Source: Phoronis australis (taxonomy: Eukaryota; Animalia; Phoronida). Taken from it: a DNA stretch of 64,000 nucleotides. Shown here piece by piece: positions 55,201-61,200 of this stretch. The notes under the pieces are model-generated. The model did not search any database and was not told the DNA's origin. It worked only from the letters and a program-made list of their open reading frames with translations. The translations under genes were made by a program, and so were the position numbers. The stretch's first letter is position 1. Each line of letters opens with the position of its first letter. Where the stretch lies: positions 192,859 to 256,858 of the forward strand of contig NMRA01000136.1 of NCBI GenBank assembly GCA_002633005.1, given 5' to 3'.

Positions 55201-58200
55201 ACCTTTTGCTGTACAGTGACATCTGCCTATCTTCGTGTCCAATATTTCGTTGAAGCTTAACATAACCCTACATTTTCAATGCATCGGTATGTGAGATGAA
55301 AAGCGTATTCACTGCAGAAGCTGAACAAGTGCCAAGTATGGTCTCAGTCAAAATCGTCAACATGGTAAGTCAGGTAATACATGCAATTAAGAACATCACA
55401 GACCACAGAGCAACATTCACATCTCAAGTTAACATGTCTCAAACCACTGCCATAGCGACCTTAATTCTCAAGTTTTCACGGCACACTTAACATAATGGTG
55501 CTTCACACTATTTCTAAATCAATAAACTGCTTTAGACACCTCACTCATACAAGCTCTTAGACTTAAAGTGCTTAAAATAGCATAATATCACTGAAAACAA
55601 CAACGCAAGCAAACAAGAATTCAACAGATTACACTTTGTGGTAATTACAGTCTCTGTTGACAATCCAATTGTTATTTTCCTGTAGATAAGTACCTGTAAA
55701 CAGTGTGCCAGGTTACAGTAGGCATCAGGAAATTCTGGCTTTAGTTTGAGTGCCGTCTTATAGGAGGCGATGGCCTCGGGGATGTTGCCCGAGTCCTTAT
55801 GAATAGACGCCAGGTTGCTGTGCGCGTCAGCAAATGCCGGGTTGATCTGGATGGCGCGCGTGTAGCACTGCAGTGCCCCCTGGATGTCCTGCATCTCCTT
55901 CAGCGTATTGCCCATGTTGGAGTAGGCGTCTGCAAATGTCGGCGAGATCCTATTGCAAGAGAGAGCACAGTTTAACGATATGTATACTAACAGAGGTTTC
56001 ATTGAGATGCTGCCAGGTCAGATAGGTGAAAAGCCACTATGTGGAATACGGACTCATTTAGTAGTTAACTAAAGTAGAAAGCAATCGCCAGCACCAACAA
56101 CGGGTGCTTGAGAGGGACAATCTTTTCAAATCTGAACAGAGATTGTAAAACATGATGAGATACTTTCTTCAATATGATTAAATTACTTTAATTCTTCCAA
56201 CCCCAAAATTGTGTGGTTGAGTGTCATTATTTTCCTAGTCTGAACAAAGCATGCAACATAAGACATGAACTTTCTTCGAAGTGAAGGCCAAATTACTTTG
56301 ATAAACAAAAACTTAATACTAAATAAAAATCTAACCAGACATAATGGAGTAACAAACTTTTTACAGATTCCCTCGTCAAAAGGATTTTAGGTGACAGTTT
56401 GCAATCTAATTCCTGTACATGCCCAAAACTTTTTATCTGGTCTTAGTATTTTAGAAATAAGATAATAAAGCGTCATAGACAGGCTACGTGTAGTGCAATG
56501 GGGTCAGTAAGACCAGAGCTAAAATACTGAATTGCAAGCCAGAAAATGGTGTCAAAACCGTTTCAGACAGTTAGGAAAGACATGTACATGAAGACAACAA
56601 AGCATCGTAATTTACTGCATTTAGACACCATGGTTACTGGGCAGAGTAAGAGTGATACAAACTGAAGTGTGTTATACCAGTAGTTGCCAGACTTGGATTA
56701 CCCATTTCAGCTTTTGCTAAGAATACGATCAAAATAGTTGATATGACGTCAAAGCCCCATGCACCAATATTTAGTACACATCAAAAGAGGGGCTAATTGT
56801 GTTTGATGTGATGAATCAATTCATAATATCAATGAACTGCGCTTAGTCCATAGTGCATATCATGTAACTTCGTTTTAAAATCTTTATAAATCTTTCCACA
56901 AAGAAAAATGAACCCAAGCAAAGAGTTTTTCAAGGTGGCAATGAATGCGACATTAAGCTAAGGTATGCAGATATTGCAGCAGTATATCCAAAGTGCCACT
57001 GCAATATGACTGAACAACAGGTTGCTTTTGTAACGAGATGTACCCCTCAAATGCGTGAAGAATGGCTGAAGACCACAAGCCAGGGAACTACAGGCGAATA
57101 GGAATAACTAAACAAACAAGAATTTCAAGTCACAAACAGAAGTAGGCAAAAACAAGCAGGAATTATTAGGTTGAGGTGCTGAAGCAATATCCTGCTCTGG
57201 CGCAGTGAGGAGCCATACTCCACAAGGCGCCCTATACTGTACAAGGCAACCCTCAATGATGCACAGCACACGCCTGGGACACAAGAGAGACACGCACAGA
57301 CACACGATACCTGATGGCTTCCTTATAGTGTGCCAAAGCCTCGTTCAGTTTGCCCTGCAGTTGCAGGATGCTGGCGAGGTTGGAATGGGCGGCGGCGAAC
57401 TCCGGGAACACCTAGAAACAAGCAAGATGGCGGACACGGTAAGCAGGGGCCAGGGGCACGACGGGCGCCCTGGCAAGGCGGGCGTGGCAGCCTGGCACGT
57501 GCTTAGAGGTCTCTGGCGGTGAGCGCGCAGCTTTCATTTCATTGCTGGACGACCTGTGCTTTTCATCAATGTGCTACATCAAAATCGAAGACGTTTTTGC
57601 CACAGGAGTTCTCAGGCGTTCTTGGAGGAAAAAATCACCCTCAAATCGGCTATCAAAAAAGTGGCCTAAGCTTTACTGACAAATGTTCCTGGACTTGTAT
57701 TGCAAACAGATAACTACTTAGGCAGCACAGACTCTTGACAAGGCCGTTCAACAAAACACAGCAAGCTTGCACGCAGGTCGGAAAGCTGAAACAACAACGG
57801 GAACTAATAATGAAATAATGACAAAGGGGAGTGTGAGTGGCGTCATGCATGCGTTAACGAAAAGTAACTACCAAAAACACAGAACGTAATCGAAGCAGCC
57901 CGCCGTCGACAGCTGCACAGAAACGGTGGGTTGGGCACATGCAAGACAGACCGCCACCGAGTCGGTCACGTGACTCTAGACCTAGTACCTGATCGCTTCC
58001 TTATAGTGCATGAGGGCCTCGTGGAGCTTGCCCTGCTGCTGCAGGACGCTGGCAAGGTTAGANCAGGCGTTCTTGGGGGAAAAATTCACCCTCAACTCGG
58101 CTATCAAAAAAGTGGCCTAAGCTTTACTGACAAATGTTCCTGGACTTGTATTGCAAACAGATAACTACTTAGGCAGCACAGACGCTTGACAAGGCCGTTC

Positions 58201-61200
58201 AACAAAACACAGCAAGCTTGCACGCAGGTCGGAAAGCTGAAACAACAACGGGAACTAATAATGAAATAATGACAAAGGGGAGTGTGAGTGGCGTCATGCA
58301 TGCGTTAACGAAAAGTAACTACCAAAAACACAGAACGTAATCGAAGCAGCCCGCCGTCGACAGCTGCACAGAAACGGTGGGTTGGGCACATGCAAGACAG
58401 ACCGCCACCGAGTCGGTCACGTGACTCTAGACCTAGTACCTGATCGCTTCCTTATAGTGCATGAGGGCCTCGTGGAGCTTGCCCTGCTGCTGCAGGACGC
58501 TGGCAAGGTTAGAGTGGGCCACGGCGAACTCGGGGTAGACCTGCAATACATACACATACGTACGGGCGAAGAACCACGGGGTTAGATGGCATATTTCGTG
58601 CCACTGGGTCCCACAAAGAGAGCAGACTTTTACATCTAACAGCTGAGACTACATCCCGGGTTCAGGGAATTAAACTTTGAAAATAATGGACAACTTTACA
58701 ATATACTCTCTGATGCTTGTATCACCAGATGCTATCAACAGTTTTTAGTAGTCTGATACTTCTCATTTTATGCATCAAATCAATTAGTCGTACCAAACAC
58801 AAAAGAGCTTCAATGACACCCTAATCCCATTACACCAGGTACCTACCTCTAGGGCCTTCAGGTATAACTTGACAGCCTCCTCTGTGTGACCCTGCTCTCT
58901 CTTGATGTTAGCCAGATTGTTAAGGGAGTCGGCGTGCGTCGGGCACAGGCGCAATGCCGTGTTGTAGCAGTCTTCACTGTCTTGAATCTGCAACAAGAAC
59001 AATATTCCCATATTTAATAAACAACTAACATGCGCCTTTCTTTTTTCACCTCCAAACTAACTGGACAACGAATTCATCCTGTTACAGGAAACTCAACTGA
59101 AAATAGACACTACATCTTGAAGTATACTCACCCACGCAGTTGTGTTTTCAAACAAGTTTGTTTTTATGAAGGGCTCCTACCCAACAATACGATTTACAGC
59201 AAACAGAAAATGTTCAAGGGTCCAATAAGTCTGCATGGATTCATGCTAAGAGAGAGCCATTTGAAGACAGTAAAACTGAACCTTAGAACTGGAATTTGAA
59301 ATTCTAGGCATCCATAGACTAGGGGTAAGTGTCAAACTGCACATTTGTCTAGAACATCCACACTTCTACGTTAAGATGGCACCAAAACCCTGTCAAATTC
59401 CTTACTTTTCCTTTTTCTTTCAGAGCATTAGCCAGGTTGCAGTAGGCATCTGGGAAATTAGGCTGCAGTTCTATCGCTCGTCTATAGGTGTCAATAGCCA
59501 AGTCAATAAGTCCTTGCTCATAGTAGACACAGGCCAGGTTGCCATGGACAACAGCATGGTTGGGACTCAGGTTGAGTGCTCGCAAGTATGCAGCCACAGC
59601 CCTGGAAACACGAAGCCATTAGCATATACCACTCAAAAACTCCCGTCTTCCATCACAAAAGCCAACCTTTTATTTAAGACCACAACAGTAAGCAATTAGT
59701 CTCAAATCGTGCCTTAGTCTCAATTTGAGGTGTTTTGACAACAGACTCTACAAGTTTGTTTTATGCATTGAGAATGCTTCAAAGTAGTAACTAATTGTTT
59801 GCAAACTTAGAAGTCTCACCTCATGTGAGTGAAGAACATTAGAAGACCAATTATGAAACAGTGAGCGGTCTATCAAAAGTTCGCTTCTTGGGATGAAACG
59901 TGGGTTTACAAACCCAGGGTCCGATTTGGTGAGTACTAGGTCGCATTTTACGAACTGAAATTGCCGTTGGCAACCCGAGCTCGAGGCTTACTCCCCAAAT
60001 GCAATTTCAATTTTTCATTGCTCAACTCACCAAACGCGACCTCAATTTACGACACTGCCGTTCTCACGCTTGCAAAACCTCGTCAGCCTGGTCAACTAAC
60101 ACTCACCAACATAACAAAACAAAAACAAAAAAAAAACAACCGAAAAGCGTTCAGCACCGGTCAACTATTGTCGCCATCTGCCTTTCTTGTTTATCCACAG
60201 GTGCTCAAAAACTAACATTCTCCAACAGTGGCTCCTACAGACAAGGGAGCAACTCTCTATAGATCATGCAGTTTGGCACAGCGAGATTTGAGCGTCTGTG
60301 GTTACCTTGTCTGCTCTACGTACCGAATTAACGTGTATTCCACAATTTCTTCACCCGTCATAAAATTTTGGAAAACATGTCAATGCGGTATGTAGAGCAC
60401 GATGTGCTGCGATTGAAAGTATTGGAGTCACTTTTGAATGTGCAGCAAACAGGGTCACGCTGCACGCTACACTTGTTTGTTTGACTTTCCTGTTACCACC
60501 CTTCATTTGTCATTCTTTGCAGTATTTCACGCCTGCCATGTCCCACTATGTATGTCTCCAGCTTTTGCTCTGTGGTGGTATTACTTCGTCATTTTATTTC
60601 CACTTGAGAATGAAACAAGTATGTTTCGAAATATCGTGTTTTTTAATCCTGTTTCTTGGTCAGTTGCATTAACAATGTTCTGTTGAGTGTCGAACTTTGT
60701 TCGGAGGGTACTAATTCAACCAATTTTACAATAGACTGAAAACGTTTTAATCCAAGGTGCCTAGTAAGTTACCACGGACATTAGCGCACATCTGTAGTAG
60801 GACCAATTTTTTAGAACATCAGTCCATTTCAGTCAGAACTGTGATTCTGAAAAGAGTGCTTCGTCCCAAAGGTGTTGAACTTAACCTAATGACATGCATG
60901 CTTACTTTCTACTTTCATAAGTCACTGAATAAGTAACACTACACTATGTCCAAAGGCACAGGCACCTTTCCCCTCAGGTGAGCAACAGCCATCAACTGAT
61001 GTTAGGTGAGGAGGGGGGGCATCAAGAGAAATCTACCACTAGTAGAAAATGAACAATCGTCTCTGATATACAAATACCTGTCAAATATCCTGGCCTCCTT
61101 CAACACGTTACCCAGATTGATGTAAGCATCCAGGAAGTTGGGGTCGAGAGCCACAGCCTTCTCAAAGTGATGGATGGCCAGCCAGATTTCACCCTGGCAG

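Follow-up and report, generated by a model that had tools for sequence, protein, structure and literature searches.

The window analysed here is a stretch of 64,000 nt from the phoronid Phoronis australis (assembly GCA_002633005.1, contig NMRA01000136.1, positions 192,859 to 256,858), and its minus strand carries the gene for OGT. The part of OGT encoded in the window spans 862 codons, consists of a TPR array followed by the catalytic domain, and is 75–82% identical to named bilaterian OGTs over ~850 residues. Within this gene two adjacent exons, termed A and B, encode alternative versions of a single repeat, TPR11. The features concerned are as follows.

49270..62381, minus strand: the part of the OGT coding region that the window contains, in 13 exons when A is counted; its 862 codons start at the counterpart of human residue 178 and run to the stop, and the exons for the N-terminus lie beyond the window
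58847..58987, minus strand: upstream constitutive exon (141 nt), the donor of which joins A or B (joints 58538-58845 and 57409-58845)
58541..58846, minus strand: intron before A, with sense-strand reads (depth 3.5–24 in the bin 58598-58731)
58440..58540, minus strand: exon A, the major form (~78% of junction reads); TPR11 with mollusc/annelid-type Y2, V7 and H23
57613..58063, minus strand: assembly overlap artefact, a single N followed by a duplicate (447/450 identical) of the 3' portion of A with adjoining intron sequence; no third exon
57311..57411, minus strand: exon B, the minor form (~22%); TPR11 with outgroup-type F2 and A7 together with L18 and A27
55950..57310, minus strand: intron after B, with sense-strand reads (mean depth 6–9); pairing of its first 100 nt with the 3' half of A is possible (a weak lead)
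55694..55949, minus strand: downstream constitutive exon (256 nt), the acceptor of which takes A or B (joints 55948-58439, 55948-57988 and 55948-57310)

Exons A and B are each 101 nt long, are preceded by AG and followed by GT, run from phase 0 to phase 2 and contain no stop codon. They are identical at 80 of 101 nucleotides (79%); among the 33 full codons 16 are the same, 11 differ synonymously and six non-synonymously, leaving 27 of 33 residues identical, with the substitutions (A/B) Y/F2, V/A7, V/I15, Q/L18, H/N23 and M/A27. Scripted translation from the upstream exon gave an open frame of 725 codons to the natural stop with A alone or with B alone; with both exons a stop is reached after 102 codons and with neither after 87, counted from the same exon. 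The exon matches residues 356–389 of human OGT as well as the OGT chains in the PDB and corresponds to TPR11, whose ladder asparagine is N366 (PMC10618255). The ladder Asn is retained in both exons and a switch between them would therefore act on neighbours of this residue and not on the Asn itself. An earlier reading of the window from its letters alone (the sequence-only reading) had described the two 101-nt exons with their canonical sites, phases and open frames, the six residue differences among many synonymous ones, the frameshift on inclusion of both or neither, and the ladder Asn in this repeat; each of these was reproduced. Adjacency, homology, equal length and phase, and canonical splice sites place the pair in the class of homologous mutually exclusive exons.

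RNA listed under the same species label was available as one contig set (X1) and three raw-read runs (X2, X3 and X4) of a single study; ~18–19% of the raw runs was read and junctions were listed when supported by at least three reads. Joints from the upstream exon to A were found in 30, 35 and 59 reads of X2, X3 and X4 respectively, and to B in 11, 6 and 15; joints to the downstream exon were found in 26, 34 and 43 reads for A (including 8, 6 and 5 mapped to the artefact copy) and in 9, 8 and 15 for B. Overall, 227 of the 291 junction reads used A and 64 (22%) used B, with a B share of 17–26% per run; all four junctions were present in each of the three raw-read runs, and the contig run contained A only. 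Neither A-to-B nor skipping joints were listed among the 291 junction reads at this threshold, and nonsense-mediated decay (NMD) could hide them. Two differences in exon A that were present in all reads are synonymous (codons read by eye). The proposal of mutually exclusive splicing made in the sequence-only reading is thus supported, the four junctions that it predicted having been mapped with no joint-inclusion or skipping joint listed, and we consider it almost certain that the pair is real and used in an either-or manner. For its other proposal, an NMD-coupled control of OGT dosage, direct support is missing, as no junction with a shifted frame was observed, although NMD would remove these from view as well.

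The assembly contains tandem artefacts at single-N gaps, one of which falls between the two exons. A single N at 58063 is followed by a segment (58062-57613) that repeats the last three-quarters of exon A together with intron sequence at 447/450 identity, and inside this doubled segment lies a partial third copy of exon A (58062-57989) that had gone unmentioned in the sequence-only reading. RNA reads pass from 58064 directly into sequence starting at 57612 (a loose end in run X2), which identifies the repeat as an assembly overlap and gives a true A–B intron of ~577 nt; by this read path and the 447/450 identity, the third copy was rejected as a real exon. Further upstream, at the N at 61482 (region 60370-62600), a 1076/1112 (97%) tandem repeat doubles a 197-nt OGT exon; both copies send reads to the same next exon, and this artefact could pass for another exon duplication.

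To place the pair in other species, metagenome contigs were scanned with an A-type motif requiring a splice acceptor, a search whose reach excludes lineages with only an Ala7 exon. Forty loci were obtained, in five of which A is followed by B, each exon being 101 nt with AG/GT borders and the intron after A being kept in all five; L010, L013, L027 and L032 belong to one species and L035 to a second. Between the window and these two species synonymous divergence is saturated (pS 0.82–1.05) with non-synonymous divergence (pN) of 0.05–0.08 for A and 0.08–0.12 for B; purifying selection on both copies is likewise evident in the two other species (pS saturated, pN 0.04–0.12). The expectation that the pair is old and conserved in relatives was borne out by the shared A–B order, the saturated synonymous sites and the low pN. 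At the other 35 loci A is fused to the next exon, the intron being gone, and a second copy was not found; 29 of them share one peptide, a repeat with Phe16 and Gln31, so that few independent lineages are represented among the 35. The joint loss of B and its intron is the outcome that would be expected from recombination with a spliced A transcript, and these loci offer a case of exon loss going with intron loss. Their intron positions are unlike those of the window: the TPR11 exon has no intron following it, and neighbouring exons are interrupted by additional introns. At the protein level, a search with exon B gave 331 matches, of which the best 120 were at most 91% identical; neither a B-type repeat nor two copies were found in 374 proteins (cluster representatives and listed members); and no listed mollusc isoform was B-type, two of the clusters being covered for 15 of 32 and 15 of 18 members; an unannotated B is possible.

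In a quick tree the OGT of the window fell within lophotrochozoans (SH-aLRT 92) but belonged neither to the sampled molluscs nor to the clade with Ridgeia and Lamellibrachia; its position beside Lingula and Owenia was not resolved. L027 and L035 formed a group (SH-aLRT 97). Downstream of the exon their identity to the window is 82%, which brings them no nearer to it than octopus (86%) or Lingula (84%); the L035 piece in this comparison included one short intron. Exon A is identical to the repeat of octopus, abalone and Aplysia, and the combination Y2/V7/H23 is characteristic of mollusc and annelid proteins, whereas Lingula and other animals share F2/A7 with B. The A copies group with mollusc and annelid exons (support 79/86). 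A duplication confined to the window, with its A and B as sisters, was rejected on the 33-residue exon (approximately unbiased test, p-AU 0.00016), and a single clade of all six tandem copies, corresponding to duplication after the split from molluscs and annelids, was weakly rejected (p 0.04). These comparisons make it probable that one duplication preceded the mollusc–annelid split, and B would then have been lost later in molluscs and in many annelids (most of those sampled). Two annotated Owenia OGTs of 1030 residues each, P0059 and P0137, differ only at residues 154, 159 and 160, with P0137 having the usual residues; this is possibly another alternative exon or a difference between gene models.

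The substitutions between the copies follow a consistent pattern. Each of the three B copies carries A7, with Leu or Met at position 18 and Ala or Ser at position 27; every A copy carries V7 and Q18. Of the 336 proteins holding the repeat, 333 have Gln at position 18 and three divergent ones have Glu; Leu or Met occurs there in none. With the register set on vertebrate OGT so that the ladder Asn is repeat position 6, exon position 7 corresponds to repeat position 2, a column that is Asp in five of six repeats (D294, D328, D396, D430 and D464), and exon position 18 to repeat position 13, in one column with E305, E339, E407 and D441; the human equivalents are A362 (A352 in 1036 numbering) and Q373 (Q363) respectively. 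In a TPR, the residues at positions 2 and 13 point into the groove, and we take the aspartates at repeat position 2 to be the ladder residues D386/D420. The Asn and Asp ladders line the TPR lumen, with the aspartates controlling selectivity (10.1101/2020.12.22.423982; PMC11145291), and D441 (D431 in 1036 numbering) and K406 (K396) contact T14 of HCF-1 (PMC4840301). Exon positions 7 (Val/Ala) and 18 (Gln versus Leu/Met) are predicted from this register to be groove-facing, in columns that contact substrate in neighbouring repeats; positions 23 and 27, on the second helix, likely face outward. As the exchange affects residues whose predicted orientation is towards the peptide-binding groove, we lean towards the view that the two isoforms would differ in substrate or partner preference.

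How joint inclusion would be avoided was considered from the introns. Steric exclusion operates in a very short intron or where the branch point lies within ~50 nt of the upstream donor. The A–B intron measures 320–577 nt in the three species, with AG dinucleotides ≤120 nt from the B acceptor in all three; it is too long for simple steric exclusion, the branch points themselves being unmapped. A 16-bp stem is present in the A–B intron of L032, L010 and L035 (0, 1 and 0 of 40 shuffles as strong); the window has no such stem (13 of 40 shuffles as strong), and the L032 and L035 stems differ in sequence. Two of 12 duplex tests reached 0 of 25 shuffles; when exon A was retested with the intron after B, these two gave 3 (window) and 6 (L035) of 100 shuffles as strong, and the third species (L032) gave 56. 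A pairing of the 3' half of A with this intron is borderline in two of the three species. A search of Rfam over 55000-64000 gave only two matches, both far below the gathering score.

The explanation that we favour, to which we assign a probability of about 0.6, is either-or splicing of tandem TPR11 exons, the pair likely predating the mollusc–annelid split and the two proteins likely differing in substrate or partner preference. Each OGT mRNA would take one of the two exon copies; competition between the splice sites of A and B may enforce the choice; NMD may clear double-inclusion and skipped products; and the exchange at predicted groove positions 7 and 18 would lead to a different preference. 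A more far-reaching and decidedly tentative version is that in early lophotrochozoans a TPR11 with a hydrophobic residue in place of the near-invariant groove Gln might have given an OGT with its own set of substrates or adaptors, with the choice of exon tied to O-GlcNAc-responsive detained introns and the switch later lost in molluscs and most annelids.

Several observations weigh against the favoured explanation. The share of B did not differ across the three runs of the one study, for which tissue is not given (chi-square p 0.34), and RNA use of B was seen in this species only. The groove orientation comes from the repeat register and not from coordinates, and in the literature search neither A352 nor Q363 turned up as a named contact. 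The data did not reject an independent duplication in the lineage of L032 and L035 (p 0.14), and the exon tree rests on 33 columns with a support of 70/73 for the clade of B copies; the five tandem loci share one contig-name prefix and comprise two species, perhaps from one source. B drifts faster than A, and its variation between species at positions 15, 21, 23, 24, 27 and 30 fits relaxed constraint. In 12 of 12 alignment tests the introns of different species were no more alike than shuffled sequence, and neither a shared intron structure nor a pairing conserved across the three species was found.

A different account accepts real mutually exclusive exons but supposes that the two proteins work alike, B being kept only for its splicing context and having still to fold. 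Four of the six changes are conservative or common in single-exon OGTs (F2, A7, I15 and N23), pN is higher for B than for A, and B has apparently been lost in molluscs and in 35 of the 40 loci, and so is dispensable there. However, a hydrophobic residue at 18 and a small residue at 27 occur in all three B copies across saturated synonymous divergence, and we judge this account unlikely.

Less likely still, in our view, is that the main role of the pair is in dosage, with exon competition either slowing splicing, as in detained introns, or feeding NMD, and thereby tuning OGT to O-GlcNAc. Mean sense-strand depth after B was 6.3, 9.4 and 9.4 in the three runs (nine bins), against 47–63 in the next exon, and reached 24 before A; by contrast, depth was 0–0.13 in the next intron upstream and 0–0.95 at 54321-54831. 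Slow or detained splicing at the introns of the cluster is plausible and supports the dosage account in part, as do the early stops produced by both or neither exon and the use by human OGT of a decoy exon for intron detention (PMC12017769). Yet B is productively spliced in 22% of junction reads, a share at odds with the rare inclusion of decoys (PMC12017769), and its protein sequence is under constraint; the listed junctions include none that shifts the frame, and an intron elsewhere in the gene (51255-51765) also shows a depth of 4–5. The possibility that the assembler produced the tandem by inserting an allele, or a fragment of a paralogue, as B is refuted here. The assembly does make tandem artefacts at single-N gaps, including the one within the cluster, but these are 97–99% identical with their introns included, against 79% for A and B. 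In all three runs A and B are spliced to a common pair of flanking exons, the introns to either side of B are covered by reads, and the A–B order recurs in two other species.

Other intronic signals were noted in the gene. The sense-strand reads in the later OGT intron at 51255-51765 possibly reflect retention or an alternative acceptor. The intron 62382-64000 (minus strand), which precedes the equivalent of human A178, shows a sense depth of 23–58 in the three raw runs and is spliced in the contig run; it is likely the counterpart of human detained intron 4, given the human exon and intron numbering that we assume, or it may hold an alternative 5' exon. Short isoforms starting exactly at the exon after this intron made up eight of 17 checked, all from mollusc clusters. 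The intronic stretches 49825-49959, ~52343-52378 and ~60639 draw many partly fitting reads, in places on both strands, and are therefore likely dispersed repeats. Elsewhere in the window, 38409-39026 is a 39-bp tandem array of ~12 copies with one open frame per strand, probably a minisatellite.

The OGT pair belongs to a known class of splicing event, in a gene for which none was found described. Members of this class include ATE1 7a/7b, NALCN and oyster AOX. Homologous mutually exclusive exons are described as old and constrained, with variable residues near functional surfaces (PMC7954323; PMC9741552). OGT is not named in the available main text of either paper, and is absent from one short supplement of PMC9741552 and ten of PMC5740500, human catalogues in which PKM is present. 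Both OGT and exclusive-exon terms occur in the available text of PMC11765297 and PMC13170309, where they are used separately. The sequence-only reading knew of no description of such a pair, and our literature search, beyond whose reach lay most subscription papers and the databases of predicted exons, likewise found none of duplicated or mutually exclusive OGT exons. A close parallel is the PKM 9/10 type of tandem exons, which like the OGT pair are homologous, equal in length, run from frame 0 to 2 and are used either-or; compared with known tandem exon substitutions, the OGT pair swaps one whole TPR unit. The docking-site and selector RNA structures of Dscam1 and ATE1 offer a possible way to force one exon per mRNA, but in OGT no pairing is conserved across the three species and the pairing between A and the intron downstream of B amounts to no more than a weak lead found post hoc.

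Human OGT itself provides two further comparisons. Its intron 4 is controlled by a silencer and a decoy exon and is described as conserved to jawless fish and absent in Drosophila (PMC5588854; PMC12017769), and the window resembles it in showing intron retention in OGT pre-mRNA, at the introns of the cluster and at the likely counterpart of intron 4; this hints that detention of OGT introns extends beyond vertebrates. The human decoy is non-coding and rarely included, whereas B is coding, has an open and constrained frame and is present in 64 of 291 junction reads, which speaks against a decoy role for B. Human ncOGT, mOGT and sOGT, like the A and B forms, come from one gene and differ in the TPR domain (PMC12645433), but they differ in the number of repeats (13.5, 9 and 2.5), whereas the A and B forms have the same length with one proximal repeat changed. 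What lets one OGT pick out thousands of substrates is still an open question (PMC12569812), and within TPR11 N356A abolished probe binding and lowered global glycosylation (PMC11440498). Where the known isoforms of OGT merely shorten the TPR array, A and B thus appear to be a natural, long-kept, same-length variant of a key repeat, and the pair points to human A362 and Q373 as positions that could be assayed.

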